A DNA stretch of 64,000 nucleotides, taken from the NCBI RefSeq assembly GCF_055900595.2, contig NZ_CM148325.1. The stretch is one strand, 5' to 3'. How positions within the stretch are numbered: position 1 is the first letter of the stretch; each line of letters begins with the position of its first letter. Both the position numbers and the translations under genes were made by a program. The notes under the pieces are model-generated. The model worked only from the letters and a program-made list of their open reading frames with translations, was not told where the DNA came from and did no database searches. Positions 52,940 to 60,366 of this stretch are shown here, piece after piece.

Positions 52940-53179
52940 GTGGCGGAGCAATTAGAGTTCTTTCCCGTCCAGAGCCCGTGCCGGGGAATTTGCCAGTCTG
53001 ACGAACGCGGATTTTGTCGCGGCTGTTTTCGTAGTCGGGATGAGCGTTTTAACTGGAATAAAATGAGCGATGGCGAAAAACAAGAGGTGCTGCGCCTTTG
53101 TCGGCAGCGATTAATGCGCAAATTACGTGCAAATAAGCCAGCGTCATCAGACGAACCGGAGCAACCATCACTCTTTTGA
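52940..53179 (+). CDS. ydhL: DUF1289-family Cys-rich small protein (79 aa, GTG start)
   Basis: GTG at 52940 preceded by GAGGAGGGCGAG RBS; CRGICQSD...CRGC motif; the longer ORF-track extension overlaps nemR. Confidence 0.7.
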   Translation: MAEQLEFFPVQSPCRGICQSDERGFCRGCFRSRDERFNWNKMSDGEKQEVLRLCRQRLMRKLRANKPASSDEPEQPSLF

Positions 53180-53227
53180 GCATAATCTTGCGTATACTCC
53201 TCTCATATCTGATAAGAGGAAGCGATT

Positions 53228-54124
53228 ATGGTTCAGCGTATTACTATTGCGCCGCAAGGCCCGGAGTTTTCCCGTTTTGTGATGGGCTACTGGCGATTGA
53301 TGGACTGGAATATGTCCGCCCGCCAGCTGGTCAGCTTTATTGAAGAGCATCTGGATCTCGGCGTAACTACCGTGGACCACGCTGATATTTATGGCGGCTA
53401 TCAGTGCGAAGCAGCGTTTGGCGAGGCGCTGAAACTGGCACCTCATCTGCGTGAACGGATGGAAATTGTCAGCAAATGCGGTATCGCGACGACCGCGCGT
53501 GAAGAAAACGTCATTGGTCATTACATTACTGACCGCGATCACATCATTAAGAGCGCCGAACAGTCGCTAATTAATCTTTCGACCGATTATCTGGATCTAC
53601 TGTTAATCCACCGACCAGACCCGTTAATGGATGCCGATGAAGTGGCGGACGCCTTTAAACATCTGCATCAGAGCGGCAAAGTTCGCCATTTTGGCGTATC
53701 GAACTTTACGCCTGCGCAATTTGCGCTGTTGCAATCACGCCTGCCGTTTACCCTTGCCACTAATCAGGTGGAAATATCCCCGGTGCATCAGCCGTTACTG
53801 CTGGATGGCACGCTCGACCAACTGCAACAACTGCGTGTTCGTCCGATGGCGTGGTCTTGCCTTGGTGGTGGTCGTCTGTTTAATGATGATTATTTCCAGC
53901 CTCTGCGTGATGAACTGGCTGTGGTGGCGGAGGAGTTAAACGCGGGCTCTATTGAACAGGTGGTTTACGCCTGGGTTTTACGTTTACCGTCGCAGCCGCT
54001 GCCGATAATCGGCTCCGGTAAAATTGAGCGCGTGCGAGCAGCTGTTGAAGCAGAAACCCTGAAAATGACTCGCCAACAATGGTTCCGTATCCGTAAAGCG
54101 GCACTGGGTTACGACGTACCGTAA
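53228..54124 (+). CDS. ydhF: aldo-keto reductase family oxidoreductase (298 aa)
   Basis: 298-aa AKR-like ORF; synteny. Confidence 0.85.
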   Translation: MVQRITIAPQGPEFSRFVMGYWRLMDWNMSARQLVSFIEEHLDLGVTTVDHADIYGGYQCEAAFGEALKLAPHLRERMEIVSKCGIATTAREENVIGHYITDRDHIIKSAEQSLINLSTDYLDLLLIHRPDPLMDADEVADAFKHLHQSGKVRHFGVSNFTPAQFALLQSRLPFTLATNQVEISPVHQPLLLDGTLDQLQQLRVRPMAWSCLGGGRLFNDDYFQPLRDELAVVAEELNAGSIEQVVYAWVLRLPSQPLPIIGSGKIERVRAAVEAETLKMTRQQWFRIRKAALGYDVP

Positions 54125-54203
54125 GCACTTTAGGAATAGCCGCCGTTCAAAAATGTGTCACTGGTTTACACTTATTCAGGAATGCACAATGAACGGAGGT
54201 CCT

Positions 54204-54725
54204 ATGAAACGTTTTAGTCTGGCTATTCTGGCGCTGGTTGTTGCTACCGGCGCGCAAGCTGCCAGTGAAAAAGTCGAGATGAACCTCGTCACGTCGCAAG
54301 GGGTTGGGCAGTCAATTGGTAGCGTCACCATTACTGAAACCGATAAAGGTCTGGAGTTTTCGCCCGATCTGAAAGCATTACCCCCCGGTGAACATGGCTT
54401 CCATATTCATGCCAAAGGAAGCTGCCAGCCAGCTACCAAAGATGGCAAAGCCACAGCGGCGGAATCCGCAGGCGGGCATCTTGATCCACAAAATACCGGT
54501 AAACATGAAGGGCCAGAAGGTGCTGGGCACTTAGGCGATCTGCCTGCGCTGGTTGTCAATAATGACGGCAAAGCTACCGATGCCGTCATCGCGCCTCGTC
54601 TGAAATCACTGGATCAAGTCAAAGATAAAGCGCTGATGATCCACGTTGGTGGCGATAATATGTCCGATCAACCTAAACCGCTGGGCGGTGGCGGTGAACG
54701 CTATGCCTGCGGTGTAATTAAGTAA
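54204..54725 (+). CDS. sodC: periplasmic Cu,Zn superoxide dismutase (173 aa from MKRFSLAIL)
   Basis: Signal peptide; Cu/Zn-binding His-rich motifs (HGFHIHAKGSC, GGHLDPQ); ATG at 54204. Confidence 0.95.
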   Translation: MKRFSLAILALVVATGAQAASEKVEMNLVTSQGVGQSIGSVTITETDKGLEFSPDLKALPPGEHGFHIHAKGSCQPATKDGKATAAESAGGHLDPQNTGKHEGPEGAGHLGDLPALVVNNDGKATDAVIAPRLKSLDQVKDKALMIHVGGDNMSDQPKPLGGGGERYACGVIK

Positions 54726-56738
54726 CTAAGAGGCCAGCGTACCTTGCGGCGGTGCTTGCTCAAGTTGCGAAAGCGAGCAGTACAGCCGCCAGACAATTGC
54801 CGCCAGCTCCTGGGCGGCAGGTTGATGATGACGGGCAAGGCTGTCGCAAATCCGCTGTAATTCTGCAAGTGTGGCCGCCAGTGATTTTTGCTGAACGCCA
54901 CGCTCACTCATCACTCCACGTAACAATGAAATACAGTTATCCCGTACTCGCGATAACGGATCGGAACGCGATTCCCATTCGCGCAATTGCCAGACAACAT
55001 GAGAACAGTTCAACAACACCACCCCCCAGCGTAATAACCAACGGCGAGCCAGCGCATCCTGGCTGTTACTTAACTGACTGACGTGATGATAAGTGAGTGA
55101 TTCAAAATCGCTTTCACTCAGTGTTGGATGGCGGCTTAGTTGGTCGACAAAATCCCGGCGCAGTGCGCGAATATGACGACGGCTTTTACGAGCGTCAGAC
55201 CCAGGTCGCAGAATGGCGAACGCTAGCCACGCCAGCGCTACGCCAACAATTTTTGCCAGATTGTCATTAAGAAAATCAGCGAAATCATACACCGGTGGAT
55301 TAGTGACAGCGATAAACGACCCCATAAATACAATCAGTTGCCCCCACAGTGCGGCAAATTTGGGCATCTGCAATTTAAGAAGCTGCATCGTCGCCAGCAG
55401 TGGAAAGAGAAACAGTAAAAATTGCCACAGATCGCTAATCTGGACCATCAGGCCAAATTTGACCACAAAGCTGAATAGCGAAAGTAACACTAGCGTGCGC
55501 ATTAGCAGTGACAAGGACTTAAACGGTGCCGCGACGGCGGAGTAGAGTACGCAGCTAATTGCGGCCAGCGTTAATGCATTGGCACCGGCATCCCATTGTG
55601 AAGCGATACTCCATGCGCCAATTATCATCAATGTACAAAATGTTCGTAGTCCGCTCCACATAGCTTCGGCGTTATCGGTATGACGTGCCAGGCCGGATGT
55701 CCGTGGGAGTTTGGCATGATCATCTACGCCGCTTTGCAGACGATGTAATTCCTGACTGCTTTGCAGATAAAGATGGCAAAAATAGCGTAGTCGCTGCCAG
55801 AAGGCGACGTGCCGGTAGTCGGCGACGTTGGTCGGGCGTAGCGGGGCAATAATACGTGCGACGGTGTAAAAATCTGTTTGCGAACTGGCGAGCGCGGTCA
55901 GCAACTGGTCGAGAATTTCTCGTGTGGCACCTGGCGGTGAGGGCCAGTTGAGCAACATACGTCGCAGGCTGGAAATGACGCTGGTCATACGTAATTGCTG
56001 GTGGAGCAGCGCATTAAGGCGCGCGTTTTGCTGGCGAAAACGATAGTGGCTCCAGAAAGCCTGGATACGCAGCAAATTCATGGTCAGTATCTGTCCAATC
56101 ACCCCCTCATGTGCTGCACGAATGGCATCGGTTGTTTCAGGCTGCCAGAGTAAACTGGCATGTTCAAGTAGTCGGGCGTGCATGTTTTTCAATGCGGTTA
56201 AAAGGGCTGTAGCATCGGAACTGCTAGGCAGGATCATCATCATCATGCCGCCGCACAAAATACCGACAATCACCTCGCAAACGCGCGCCTGAGCGATATC
56301 CCACAGCTGGCTGGCCTCAGTAATATTAACCATCGGAAAGGCGATGATGGCAGCCGTGTAGCCCGCCAGTTGAAATGCATACGCGACGTTATTCGTGAAG
56401 TGCGCACAGGCCCAGGTACAAAAGCCAAGCCACGCCGACATACTCAATAGAAAAAACCAAGGTTCGTTGAGCGTATGTCCGGCAAGAATCAGTGCTGCAA
56501 TGGCTCCCAGTAAACTGCCAGCGATGCGTCCGAGGCTTTTGCTGATGACACCGCCAACGGTGGGAAAGCTAACCACGGCAGCCGAGGTCATCGCCCAATA
56601 GGGCTCATCAAGATTCAAATAATAGGCAATCGTCAGCGCCAGACACATGGCAAGGGTATTGCGTAACGCATAACGCCATTGCGCCAGCGTGGCCCTGAAC
56701 CAGGGCAAATTGCGCAAGGACCATGACGATGCACTCAT
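54726..56738 (-). CDS. ydhK: FUSC/AaeB-family membrane protein, putative efflux pump (670 aa)
   Basis: 670-aa ORF with two hydrophobic halves; paralogous architecture to AaeB. Confidence 0.85.
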
Positions 56739-57595
56739 TATTGACCTACGGCAATGCTACAGGTGGTGCCCGACACCAGCGTGACATCGCCTGGGACTTT
56801 ATCCAGCGCAAAGCGGACCGGAACACGTTGGGCGAGGCGAACCCAGGGGACGTTAGGTTTCACATCCGGAATAAGGCTTGAGTCACTTTCAACGCTCTGA
56901 TCATAAATCGCCCGACCGATACTGGAAACGTGACCCTGTAACGTTTTGTTATCACTATAGAGGGTAATTTGTGCTGGTGCACCTTCGCGGATATGGCGCA
57001 ACTTGGTTTCTTCAAAATAACCAATGACGTAAAACGAGTGGCTATCGACAAGAGCAAACAGCGGTTTCCCGGTGTCAGCGTAATCGCCGATGCGGGTAGT
57101 AAGATTAGTCACCCATCCGCTCACCGGGGCGCTAATTTCCGTTTGCGCCAGTTGCCATTGTGCCTGTTTCAACGTCGCCTGTGCGGCATCAACACTGGCC
57201 TGCATCGCTTTAACATTGAGGTTAGCGGTATCGAGTTCTTCGGCAGAAATAAAATTTTGTGAGAGATGACGACGACGATTCGCTTCGTTATTGGCTTTTG
57301 CGAGGTCAGATTGCGCTTTCGCCAGCTGAGCCTGTGCGTTGAGCTCGGCGATCTGAAAGGGCGTTTTATCGATCGTGAGCAGAAGATCCCCCGCGTTAAC
57401 CAGCTGGTTGTCTTTTATATTCAGCTCAACAATACGTCCCGACACCTGTGGGGTGATAGAAACCTGTTCTGCGCGTATTTTCCCGTCGCGTGTCCACGGA
57501 GATTGCATGTAATAATTCCACAGCCACCATCCGGCAAGAACCGCAACTACCGCTACAATGATTGTTGAGAAATACTTAATTGTTTTAATTGACAT
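56738..57595 (-). CDS. ydhJ: HlyD-family membrane fusion protein (285 aa from MSIKTIKYF)
   Basis: N-terminal TM, coiled-coil region and beta-barrel segment typical of membrane fusion proteins; 1-nt overlap with ydhK. Confidence 0.85.
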
Positions 57596-57597
57596 AG

Positions 57598-57834
57598 TTA
57601 CCACGCATTCAGTATTGCCAGGGAAAGGCAAACGCAAATCGCAAACAGCGATAAATCCATTAACAAGGGATGCCAGATGTCACCGGCGTAGATCCAGCCA
57701 CGAAGCAGGCGGTGTACGACAAGCCAGATGACGAATCCAAACGCGAAGGCTTTGAAAAACGGAGGAAAGTAGACGGACGCACCGAACACCAGATCTTGTA
57801 AGGGCAATCCTGTTGCATTGAGCATAAACTTCAC
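57598..57834 (-). CDS. ydhI: DUF1656 small membrane protein, AaeX-like (78 aa)
   Basis: Two-TM 78-aa ORF directly upstream of ydhJ. Confidence 0.8.
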
Positions 57835-58006
57835 AAAGTAGATTCCTTTACGACCGAATATATTGCGTTAGATTAATAAATATTCTTTAAGTGCGAAAAA
57901 TTTACGCGCAATTTCTGAAAAATATGTCTGACGGTAACCAAATGCAGCAATACATTTGTTTTAGCAATACAATTGCTGCACACTATTCTAAAAGCCGCAT
58001 AATATC

Positions 58007-58018
58007 TTAGCAAGCTAA
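58007..58018. promoter_or_regulatory. SlyA binding site, perfect palindrome TTAGCAAGCTAA
   Basis: Exact 12-bp palindrome matching the SlyA consensus, 11 bp upstream of the slyA ATG; a second inverted repeat agcaat-acaa-ttgct lies at 57962-57976. Confidence 0.8.
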
Positions 58019-58028
58019 TTATAAGGAG

Positions 58029-58469
58029 ATGAAATTGGAATCGCCACTAGGTTCTGATCTGGCACGGTTGGTGCGCATATGGCGTGCTCTGATAGACCAT
58101 CGCCTGAAACCGCTGGAGTTAACACAAACCCATTGGGTTACGTTACACAATATCCATCAGTTACCTCCAGACCAGTCGCAAATTCAACTGGCAAAAGCGA
58201 TTGGCATCGAGCAGCCATCACTGGTCCGTACTCTGGACCAACTGGAAGAAAAAGGGTTAATTTCGCGTCAAACTTGTGCCAGCGATCGTCGGGCTAAACG
58301 TATTAAACTGACGGAAAAGGCAGAGCCGCTGATCAGCGAAATGGAAGCTGTTATTAACAAAACCCGCGCGGAAATTTTACATGGCATCTCCGCAGAGGAA
58401 CTGGAACAACTGATTAAGCTCATCGCAAAACTTGAGCATAATATCATTGAGTTACAGGCCAAAGGGTGA
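58029..58469 (+). CDS. slyA: MarR-family transcriptional regulator SlyA (about 144-146 aa; start codon ambiguous between ATG 58029 and a nearby TTG)
   Basis: [39 protein letters not shown]... recognised. Confidence 0.95.
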
Positions 58470-58515
58470 AATGAAGGGGGCGTGTGGTCAGTAACCTGAC
58501 CACACGCAAACTTAT

Positions 58516-58983
58516 TTAGCGCGGGGAAACGGTCACCTGACTGCCATTGCTGGCCAGTACGACACGTTGGCCCGGAGAGAAACGAGTGTTGCCTTGTTTC
58601 TGTACCACCATGATGGTATTACCATCGTCTTTACGAATTTCCAGCTCGACACCCTGCGTTTTGTTCATTGCACTCTGTACGCCCTGACCGGCTACGCCAC
58701 CTGCAACAGCGCCTGCTGCAGTAGCCAGAGAACGCCCGGTTCCGCCACCAACAGTATTCCCCAGGAAACCACCAAGAACAGCACCGCCAATTGCGCCGAT
58801 AACGTTGGAATCATCACCGCCCTGAATCTGTACCGGACGTACGTTAACGATGGTGCCATAGCTGACATTCTGTACTTGTTTCGCTTCAGAAGCGGTATAA
58901 ACATCCCCTGACAGGGTGTCGTTATTAACACAACCGACAAGAGACAGACCTACCATTGAAACAACCAATACGCGTTTAATCAT
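58516..58983 (-). CDS. slyB: outer membrane lipoprotein SlyB, glycine-zipper (155 aa)
   Basis: Lipobox LVGC; Gly-rich repeats (GAIGGAVLGGFLGNTVGGGTG). Confidence 0.95.
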   Translation of the reverse strand: MIKRVLVVSMVGLSLVGCVNNDTLSGDVYTASEAKQVQNVSYGTIVNVRPVQIQGGDDSNVIGAIGGAVLGGFLGNTVGGGTGRSLATAAGAVAGGVAGQGVQSAMNKTQGVELEIRKDDGNTIMVVQKQGNTRFSPGQRVVLASNGSQVTVSPR

Positions 58984-59256
58984 TGAAAAATCTCCTGTTC
59001 ACCATGAAACGCCACGCAAGCATCCCTCATGGTCAAAGTATATGGCATATGTGAATCCATGGTTACATGTTCTACCAAATATGAGCAAATCATAATGAAA
59101 GTAGGATCAACCAATTATAAACAAAACATTCATGATGATTATTGATTTGAAGATAATGTTTTACTACCAACGGTAAAAATCGGTCATTCCGCATGGTATT
59201 CACGAAAAGTTTATGTTTGAGTGGTGCGCAAACGTCAGATTGAAAAAGGATGAACT

Positions 59257-60366
59257 ATGAAATCGGGCCGCTTTATTGGCGTTATGTCAGGCACCAGCCT
59301 TGATGGTGTTGATGTTGTGTTGGCGACAATTGATGAACACCGGGTCGCACAGCTGGCAAGTTTGAGCTGGCCGATCCCGGTGTCTCTGAAACAGGCTGTA
59401 CTGGATATTTGCCAGGGCCAGCAGCTTACACTTTCGCAGTTTGGACAGCTTGATACTCAACTCGGGCGACTTTTTGCTGATGCGGTCAATGCCTTGCTTA
59501 AGGAACAAAACCTGCAGGCGAGAGATATCGTTGCGATCGGCTGTCACGGTCAAACCGTCTGGCATGAACCGACGGGCGTGGCACCACACACTTTACAGAT
59601 TGGCGATAACAATCAAATTGTGGCACGCACCGGAATTACGGTTGTCGGTGATTTTCGCCGTCGCGATATTGCCTTGGGAGGACAAGGCGCACCGCTGGTA
59701 CCTGCGTTCCATCATGCGCTGCTGGCCCACCCAACCGAGCGACGAATGGTGCTCAATATTGGTGGCATCGCCAATCTGTCACTGCTCATTCCTGGGCAGC
59801 CGGTAGGGGGCTACGATACCGGCCCTGGTAACATGCTGATGGATGCCTGGATCTGGCGTCAGGCAGGTAAACCTTACGATAAAGATGCCGAGTGGGCACG
59901 GGCGGGTAAAGTTATTCTCCCACTGCTGCAAAATATGCTCAGCGACCCATATTTCTCGCAACCCGCACCGAAAAGCACCGGACGCGAATACTTTAACTAC
60001 GGCTGGCTGGAGCGCCATTTGTGCCATTTTCCGGGTGTTGATCCCCGAGATGTACAGGCGACACTGGCAGAACTCACCGCCGTGACCATTTCTGAACAAG
60101 TTTTGTTGAGCGGTGGCTGCGAACGATTGATGGTATGTGGTGGAGGAAGTCGTAATCCGCTACTCATGGCGCGTCTGGCGGCATTACTGCCAGGCACAGA
60201 AGTCACCACCACCGATGCCGTTGGCATTAGTGGCGATGACATGGAAGCATTGGCTTTCGCCTGGCTTGCCTGGCGGACGCTGGCGGGATTACCAGGAAAT
60301 CTGCCTTCCGTCACTGGCGCAAGCCAGGAGACGGTACTGGGGGCTATTTTCCCCGCTAACCCGTGA
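59257..60366 (+). CDS. anmK: anhydro-N-acetylmuramic acid kinase (369 aa)
   Basis: [28 protein letters not shown]... recognised. Confidence 0.95.

Follow-up and report, generated by a model that had tools for sequence, protein, structure and literature searches.

How does a transcription factor with targets throughout the genome control the putative efflux genes that lie beside its own gene, and which of its binding sites serves which promoter? We analyzed the slyA-ydhIJK locus of Escherichia coli in a 64-kb window, that is, the whole stretch of 64,000 nucleotides (nt) from contig NZ_CM148325.1 of RefSeq assembly GCF_055900595.2. In enteric bacteria, SlyA globally regulates virulence as well as genes gained by horizontal transfer, and ydhIJK is regarded as the ancestral target of this regulator, in the style of MarR; the unit offers a textbook example of a pump repressor turned countersilencer. 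Its anatomy, its likeness to the aromatic-acid efflux system AaeXAB, and its link to SlyA are all already published. A first-pass annotation, made from the DNA letters and their open reading frames (ORFs), had proposed the same likeness and the same link. Our analysis very probably places the locus with the known slyA-ydhIJK divergent unit, an AaeXAB-paralogous efflux module under the control of SlyA that responds to aromatic carboxylates. The consensus SlyA site in the shared intergenic region is most likely the auto-operator of slyA rather than the operator of ydhI.

Organization of the slyA-ydhIJK unit

The window is part of the E. coli chromosome. Several complete genomes match a 4-kb query around slyA-ydhIJK with 100% identity, and of 5426 complete E. 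coli genomes, 5425 contain this stretch. Gene coordinates were taken from the ORF list and from the annotation that RefSeq gives for a 100%-identical strain. The four genes of the unit are as follows.

54726-56738, minus strand: ydhK, 670 amino acids (aa), RefSeq 'FUSC family protein', predicted inner-membrane FUSC / ArAE (TC 2.A.85) transporter
56738-57595, minus strand: ydhJ, 285 aa, predicted membrane fusion protein (periplasmic adaptor), anchored in the membrane by its N terminus
57598-57834, minus strand: ydhI, 78 aa, GTG start, small membrane protein of the DUF1656 family, an accessory subunit of the AaeX/FusD kind
58035-58469, plus strand: slyA, 144 aa, TTG start, MarR-family transcription factor

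The ydhIJK genes on the minus strand diverge from slyA on the plus strand. They are separated from it by a 200-bp intergenic region (57835-58034) that is 68.5% A+T, compared with ~50% for the window. All 200 of its positions are identical to K-12, and it is at least 99% identical in 5405 genomes. The tight packing of the three pump genes described previously can be read directly from the junctions: the ydhJ stop codon overlaps the ydhK ATG by 1 nt (...CAA TAATG AGT), and a 2-nt spacer separates ydhI from ydhJ (TGG TAA CT ATG). For ydhJ, the ORF tool proposed a longer reading frame from a TTG at 57637, which differs from the annotated start. ydhI, ydhJ, and ydhK are probably translationally coupled, and they specify a module of the trans-envelope type. 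An outer-membrane factor is not encoded in the operon, which consists of ydhI-ydhJ-ydhK only and is followed by the convergent sodC gene.

YdhIJK are paralogues of AaeXAB

We compared the predicted proteins with family models and with the K-12 aaeXAB proteins. YdhI matches Pfam DUF1656 (53.6 bits versus a cut-off of 26.5, E=2e-14) and has two hydrophobic segments, consistent with a two-helix accessory subunit. YdhJ matches the Pfam families HlyD_D23, CusB_dom_1, HlyD_3, and Biotin_lipoyl_2, and its single hydrophobic segment (residues 8-30) forms an N-terminal anchor, as would be expected of a membrane-anchored periplasmic adaptor. YdhK matches Pfam FUSC (PF04632) with 468.8 bits versus a cut-off of 30.9 (E=4e-140); residues 20-661 cover positions 1-658 of the 660 in the profile, which makes this a full-length match to the FUSC / ArAE family. 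SlyA matches Pfam MarR and the NCBIfam SlyA equivalog model (278.9 bits versus a cut-off of 120), is identical to K-12 SlyA at 143 of 144 positions, and finds the PDB entries 3q5f and 3deu with E=1e-79 to 3e-80 (3q5f, Salmonella SlyA, E=3e-80).

In pairwise BLASTP comparisons, YdhI and AaeX share 33% identity (E=1e-5), YdhJ and AaeA share 40% (E=4e-67), and YdhK and AaeB share 23% over 523 columns (E=3e-27). Homology in all three pairs, together with the same gene order, bears out the AaeXAB likeness claimed by the first-pass annotation, including a detectable relationship between YdhK and AaeB, whose absence would have counted against it. The best NCBIfam models for YdhI, YdhJ, and YdhK are indeed AaeX, AaeA, and AaeB (NF008615, NF007850, and NF007916). 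The scores lie far under the respective equivalog cut-offs (21.8 versus 82, 240.6 versus 400, and 120.4 versus 870 bits), and we thus consider YdhIJK to be paralogues of AaeXAB rather than orthologues or a second copy. Homology between YdhIJK and AaeAB has already been stated by Will & Fang 2025 (PMC12506092).

The two systems share the order of DUF1656 protein, membrane fusion protein, and FUSC transporter, transcribed divergently from a regulator gene. In both, the operon lacks an outer-membrane gene, and AaeAB, too, has no known outer-membrane partner (PMC8277102). They differ in their regulators, a LysR-type activator (AaeR) in the case of AaeXAB and the MarR-type SlyA in the case of ydhIJK, and in the spacers between their genes, which measure 5 and 7 nt in K-12 aaeXAB compared with the 1-nt overlap and 2-nt spacer in ydhIJK. 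AaeXAB is an aromatic-acid efflux system, whereas the substrate of E. coli YdhIJK is putative.

The YdhK model resembles plant organic-anion channels

We calculated an AlphaFold2 (AF2) model of YdhK from an alignment of 27 orthologues and AaeB (predicted local distance difference test, pLDDT, 80.1; predicted template modeling score, pTM, 0.70). The model contains two six-helix blocks, each followed by a helical domain (residues 18-169 and 175-336, and residues 356-509 and 515-661). A Foldseek search of the PDB with this model returned plant ALMT organic-anion channels (AtALMT1, GmALMT12, and AtALMT9) as all of its top 10 matches. Each of them covers approximately half of YdhK, with a best E value of 7.6e-4, a probability of 1.00, target-normalised template modeling (TM) scores of 0.43-0.50, and a sequence identity of 14-17%. 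FUSC and ALMT proteins are grouped together in the ArAE family (TC 2.A.85), and the fold matches fit this grouping. YdhK, an inner-membrane FUSC/ArAE transporter, may be built from two ALMT-like halves. The plant ALMT/QUAC channels have six membrane helices and a helical cytosolic domain, a pattern that occurs twice in the YdhK model. They are homodimers of ~400 residues per protomer, whereas YdhK is a single 670-residue chain that would hold two such halves and work with a periplasmic adaptor. A sequence search of the PDB with YdhK did not find a bacterial FUSC structure, the sole relevant match being GmALMT12 at a marginal E=0.44. Aligning the N-terminal with the C-terminal half in hhalign gave no internal-repeat signal, in a shallow alignment of 47 orthologues (effective number of sequences, Neff, 1.7).

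The consensus SlyA site probably belongs to slyA

The slyA-proximal part of the intergenic region contains three elements.

57998-58003, plus strand: CATAAT, a -10-like hexamer that ends 3 nt before TTAGCAAGCTAA; TATAAT in many other genera
58007-58018, unstranded: TTAGCAAGCTAA, SlyA consensus site, an exact match to the published high-affinity consensus
58023-58028, plus strand: AAGGAG, slyA Shine-Dalgarno sequence, 6 nt before the TTG and invariant across genera

The longest slyA ORF begins with an ATG at 58029 and encodes 146 aa, whereas the RefSeq start is the TTG at 58035, which yields 144 aa. The AAGGAG sequence directly abuts the ATG, published work gives UUG as the start (PMC5797941), and Serratia has a GTG at the position of the TTG with the upstream ATG absent. 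Together with the RefSeq annotation, these findings place the slyA start at the TTG at 58035. The intergenic region consequently extends to 58034 and not, as assumed in the first-pass annotation, to 58028 in front of an ATG start at 58029. The arrangement ATGAAATTG at the slyA start (58029-58037) is kept in most Enterobacteriaceae.

The window holds a single exact TTAGCAAGCTAA, against 0.004 copies expected from base composition. Its center lies 22.5 nt upstream of the slyA TTG and 178.5 nt from the ydhI start. It had previously been called a perfect palindromic SlyA operator. It does represent the published SlyA consensus, and is named there as the SlyA site of PslyA (PMC5797941), but it is not a perfect palindrome: the 5-bp inverted arms TTAGC and GCTAA surround a central AA, and the reverse complement TTAGCTTGCTAA differs at these two central bases. 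A true 12-bp palindrome, TTAGCATGCTAA, is found at the same offset in Serratia (L025, L028, L035, L058, and others); unlike TTAGCATGCTAA, the E. coli/Salmonella consensus has an asymmetric AA center.

We next compared 120 slyA loci, which were identified by scanning GTDB species genomes with a DNA pattern for a motif conserved in the SlyA coding sequence. Among the 115 enterobacterial loci with enough upstream sequence, TTAGCAAGCTAA is present as an exact copy in 82, from many genera, and the best match is centered 22 nt upstream of the slyA start in most of the 115, nearly all of the exact ones included. Most of the TTAGC/GCTAA arms is preserved in the variants found in Serratia (TTAGCATGCTAA), Yersinia (CTAGCACGCTAA), and Dickeya (TTAGTATGCTAA). 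The slyA-proximal 95 bp (57940-58034) are nearly invariant across genera, in contrast to the ydhI-proximal 100 bp, a pattern also described by Will 2019 (PMC6401476). ydhI and ydhJ are divergent from slyA in 88 of the 105 loci that have at least 600 nt of upstream sequence. In the remaining 17 loci without ydhIJ (Dickeya, Sodalis, Y. pestis, Wigglesworthia, and others), 7 keep the site with at most two mismatches. The consensus site therefore appears to follow slyA and not the pump. The slyA/rovA loci without ydhIJK include L079 and L122 from Yersinia, L029 and L046 from Dickeya, and L068, L089, and L090 (Candidatus Sodalis among them). In L122, degraded remnants of ydhI (50% identity over 54 aa) and ydhJ (40% over 207 aa) are visible, and these pump-less loci and remnants agree with the repeated loss of ydhIJK reported by Will 2019. 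That study surveyed the ydhIJK-slyA linkage across the Enterobacteriaceae (PMC6401476).

The position of 58007-58018, after the -10-like hexamer and before the slyA ribosome-binding site, suggests that this site primarily sets the expression of slyA itself, and a slyA transcript driven by CATAAT would be predicted to start inside TTAGCAAGCTAA. We also considered the idea that CATAAT is a weak -10 element specific to E. coli that lies behind low slyA expression, and rejected it, as Salmonella arizonae, Citrobacter, and others share CATAAT.

An alternative, implicit in the first-pass annotation, is that 58007-58018 alone governs both promoters, with the -35 element of a ydhI promoter located inside it (TTGCTA-17-TAGAAT, 58013..57985, minus strand). 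Such a layout is typical of divergent MarR loci. Our scan did find this promoter-like element, and both of its hexamers fall within the stretch that hardly varies between genera. It is, however, the one promoter-like match in 57700-58150, where 1.0 is expected in shuffled sequences, and the conservation of the block is equally well explained by slyA's own promoter and leader. A transcript that starts at ~57978 would have a 144-nt ydhI leader, and the site is partly kept where ydhIJK has been lost. Moreover, Will 2019 places the ydhI operator of Salmonella at a separate, salicylate-sensitive SlyA site with 75% identity near the -35 element of the mapped ydhI start and not at the 100% site (PMC6401476). 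We thus regard a single shared operator as very unlikely, and continue to treat TTAGCAAGCTAA as the probable slyA auto-operator. A terminator scan of the same interval (57700-58150) found none.

Candidate sites near ydhI

If the consensus site serves slyA, control of the pump promoter may depend on weaker sites nearer to ydhI. Four elements of the intergenic region are relevant here.

57844-57849, minus strand: AAAGGA, ydhI Shine-Dalgarno sequence, the one block that is conserved in the half next to ydhI (74 unique intergenic sequences)
57868-57879, unstranded: TTAGATTAATAA, secondary TTAN6TAA SlyA-like site, 9/12 matches on the reverse strand
57961-57972, unstranded: TTAGCAATACAA, SlyA-like site, 9/12 match to the consensus
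57985-58013, minus strand: TTGCTA-17-TAGAAT, predicted promoter-like element (consensus match only), -35 inside TTAGCAAGCTAA

The center of TTAGATTAATAA is located 39.5 nt upstream of the ydhI start, and the site occurs in Escherichia only. At the position of TTAGCAATACAA, 18 of the 74 unique intergenic sequences have a site with at most three mismatches. In Salmonella arizonae, a 9/12 site, TTGGTAAGCAAA, is centered 102 nt from the ydhI start. The pattern TTAN6TAA matches 15 times in the window, where 12.5 matches are expected, and this loose motif alone is thus uninformative.

The slyA-proximal block contains additional repeats. A direct repeat, AGCAATACAnTTG, is present at 57946-57958 and 57963-75 with 17-nt spacing. 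TTAGCAATACAA lies inside it and is flanked by the arms of a perfect inverted repeat of 9 bp, TGCAGCAAT and ATTGCTGCA (57943-51 / 57972-80), within which the direct repeat is nested. From their sequence, the repeats in 57943-57980 could represent extra SlyA half-sites or the site of another factor.

Proposed SlyA control of the unit

In the mechanism that we favor, SlyA binds as a MarR-family dimer to the A+T-rich 200-bp intergenic region, with its highest-affinity site at 58007-58018 between the -10-like hexamer and the slyA ribosome-binding site, and the weaker sites nearer to ydhI would mediate control of the pump promoter. Salicylate, benzoate, 4-hydroxybenzoate (4-HB), and 2,3-dihydroxybenzoate (2,3-DHB) bind SlyA and release it from DNA, pump expression would rise as these compounds build up, and the pump would then export aromatic carboxylates such as fusaric acid.

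SlyA binding to this region has been demonstrated by electrophoretic mobility shift assay (EMSA) with a 200-bp fragment and an apparent Kd of ~50-100 nM (Curran 2017, PMC5797941). We mapped the primers used, TC65 and TC66, to 58012-58034 and 57835-57855, respectively, and the tested fragment is thus exactly 57835-58034. Table 3 of that study gives two candidate sites upstream of slyA, TTAGCAAGCTAA at a distance of 22 bp and TTAGATTAATAA at 161 bp (PMC5797941). In Salmonella in vitro transcription, SlyA represses slyA 5.3-fold and ydhI ~19-fold, and salicylate relieves both (PMC6401476); ydhIJK is also SlyA-repressed in RNA-seq (Will & Fang 2025, PMC12506092). When Klebsiella loses KvrA, its SlyA orthologue, YdhJ rises 45- to >100-fold (bioRxiv 10.1101/845925), and in E. 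coli vanillin raises YdhJ 3.5-fold (PMC6561319). The EMSA on the exact E. coli fragment, the repression seen in Salmonella, and the derepression seen in Klebsiella together support the earlier proposal that SlyA controls both slyA and ydhIJK.

Several findings weigh against this reading of the locus. The ydhI-proximal 100 bp are variable between genera, except for the ydhI ribosome-binding site, and at the position where Salmonella arizonae has the 9/12 site TTGGTAAGCAAA, E. coli has only a 6/12 match. The assignment of sites to promoters and the transcript starts in E. coli are our inference. The nearest solved folds of YdhK, as judged from the AF2 model, are channels and not pumps, so that its transport mechanism is putative. 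A 2007 report by Corbett announces positive autoregulation of slyA in E. coli in its title. In E. coli K-12, deletion of slyA altered zero transcripts by at least 2-fold, and overproduction of SlyA raised ydhIJK 2.2-fold, which is of opposite sign to Salmonella and Klebsiella (PMC5797941). In TCDB, YdhK is listed as TC 2.A.85.1.6, 'uncharacterized' (PMC10971958).

These data raise an alternative, namely activation of ydhIJK by E. coli SlyA through countersilencing, with H-NS displaced from the A+T-rich stretch between the genes, as happens at hlyE and other SlyA targets. The 2.2-fold increase was obtained with multicopy slyA in K-12, the operon is marked 'O' in the respective table, and the authors of the Curran study propose activation of divergent promoters (PMC5797941). 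The base composition of the region would suit such a mechanism, and its ydhI-proximal half differs from that of Salmonella. The effect is, however, small and seen only with multicopy slyA, deletion of slyA being without effect; the ~19-fold repression of ydhI by Salmonella SlyA was observed in a purified system without H-NS, and the Klebsiella kvrA phenotype likewise points to repression. The proteins themselves are also closely similar, with SlyA in our window differing from K-12 SlyA at one position and K-12 SlyA being 91% identical to Salmonella SlyA. We consider activation in E. coli to be rather unlikely, and retain the mechanism outlined above as the preferred explanation.

The ydhI-proximal 100 bp have nevertheless been rewritten in Escherichia, with TTAGATTAATAA occurring only there and a 6/12 match in E. 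coli at the position of the arizonae site, and the wiring between SlyA and the pump could thus differ. In view of the E. coli expression data and the title of the Corbett report, SlyA may act on ydhIJK in E. coli either as a repressor or as an activator. A broader proposal, that the wiring is genus-specific (with E. coli SlyA activating or ignoring ydhIJK while Salmonella and Klebsiella repress it strongly), or that YdhIJK exports the SlyA ligands 4-HB and 2,3-DHB, appears unlikely to us.

What YdhIJK may transport

Function has been shown only as a growth phenotype in Salmonella: when fusaric acid is present, ydhIJK mutants grow late and slyA mutants grow better (PMC6401476). The fusaric-acid phenotyping envisaged by the first-pass annotation thus exists in the literature, for Salmonella only. 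Export by E. coli YdhIJK is putative. The same annotation held that the substrate is not established, and this is essentially true for the physiological one, as what YdhIJK does in the physiology of the cell 'remains to be determined' (PMC12506092), with the resistance to fusaric acid having been shown in Salmonella. The physiological substrate, energy source, and outer-membrane partner of YdhIJK in our explanation are presumed.

Other FUSC systems provide a context for the fusaric-acid phenotype. FusCDE/Bucl8 of Burkholderia and FuaABC of Stenotrophomonas combine a FUSC transporter with a small DUF protein and an HlyD-type adaptor, as does ydhIJK. These pumps confer fusaric-acid resistance and respond to compounds resembling p-hydroxybenzoic acid (pHBA) (PMC7682875), and Salmonella ydhIJK likewise confers fusaric-acid resistance. 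They differ from ydhIJK in that their operons also encode an outer-membrane factor and a regulator of the LysR type, neither of which is present in ydhIJK, and in their gene order, fusC-fusD-fusE. With regard to regulation, the locus resembles marRAB and emrRAB, in which a MarR-family regulator is located beside an efflux operon, an inverted-repeat operator is found near the regulator's own start, and aromatic carboxylates such as salicylate cause release from DNA (PMC6401476). Here, slyA is divergent and not the first gene of the operon, and SlyA has mainly turned into a pleiotropic H-NS countersilencer whose connection with the pump was repeatedly lost.

A different view of the module is that YdhIJK, rather than being mainly a pump for xenobiotics, acts on an endogenous aromatic carboxylate as a relief valve or as an exporter of channel-like type, possibly on the very metabolites that inactivate SlyA, with fusaric-acid resistance as a side activity. 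This has been argued explicitly by Will & Fang 2025, who found that 4-HB and 2,3-DHB inhibit SlyA as ligands (PMC12506092). AaeAB, an exporter of 4-HB, has been characterized as a metabolic relief valve. That organic-anion channels are the sole relatives of the YdhK fold with solved structures is in line with this idea. The endogenous substrate, however, remains hypothetical, and ydhIJK has been lost in many lineages that keep slyA, which argues against an essential feedback role. The relief valve overlaps with our main explanation and does not exclude it, and we regard it as possible rather than probable. If YdhIJK did export aromatic carboxylates that inactivate SlyA, a feedback loop would be closed on a global virulence regulator. 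As for physiological export and the outer-membrane partner, and for repression versus activation in E. coli, neither answer would overturn current views.

Surroundings of the unit

Two further genes flank the unit.

54204-54725, plus strand: sodC
58516-58983, minus strand: slyB

The sodC stop codon TAA (54723-54725) directly abuts the ydhK stop codon (CTA/TAG, 54726-54728), so that the two genes converge with zero spacer and there is no room for a terminator between them. Together, the two stop codons make a chance TTAN6TAA match, TTAAGTAACTAA (54718-54729). An Rfam search of 53000-60000 at E<=1 gave zero matches. Compared with K-12 in 250-nt bins, the sodC-ydhK stretch (54109-56858) is 91-97% identical, whereas ydhJ, ydhI, slyA, and slyB are 98-100% identical; the amino-acid differences number 14 in YdhK, one in YdhJ, and one in SlyA. 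Colinearity with K-12 ends left of ~54109, at an indel between ydhF and sodC. The sodC-ydhK stretch is a local patch of raised allelic divergence, with recombination as its possible source.

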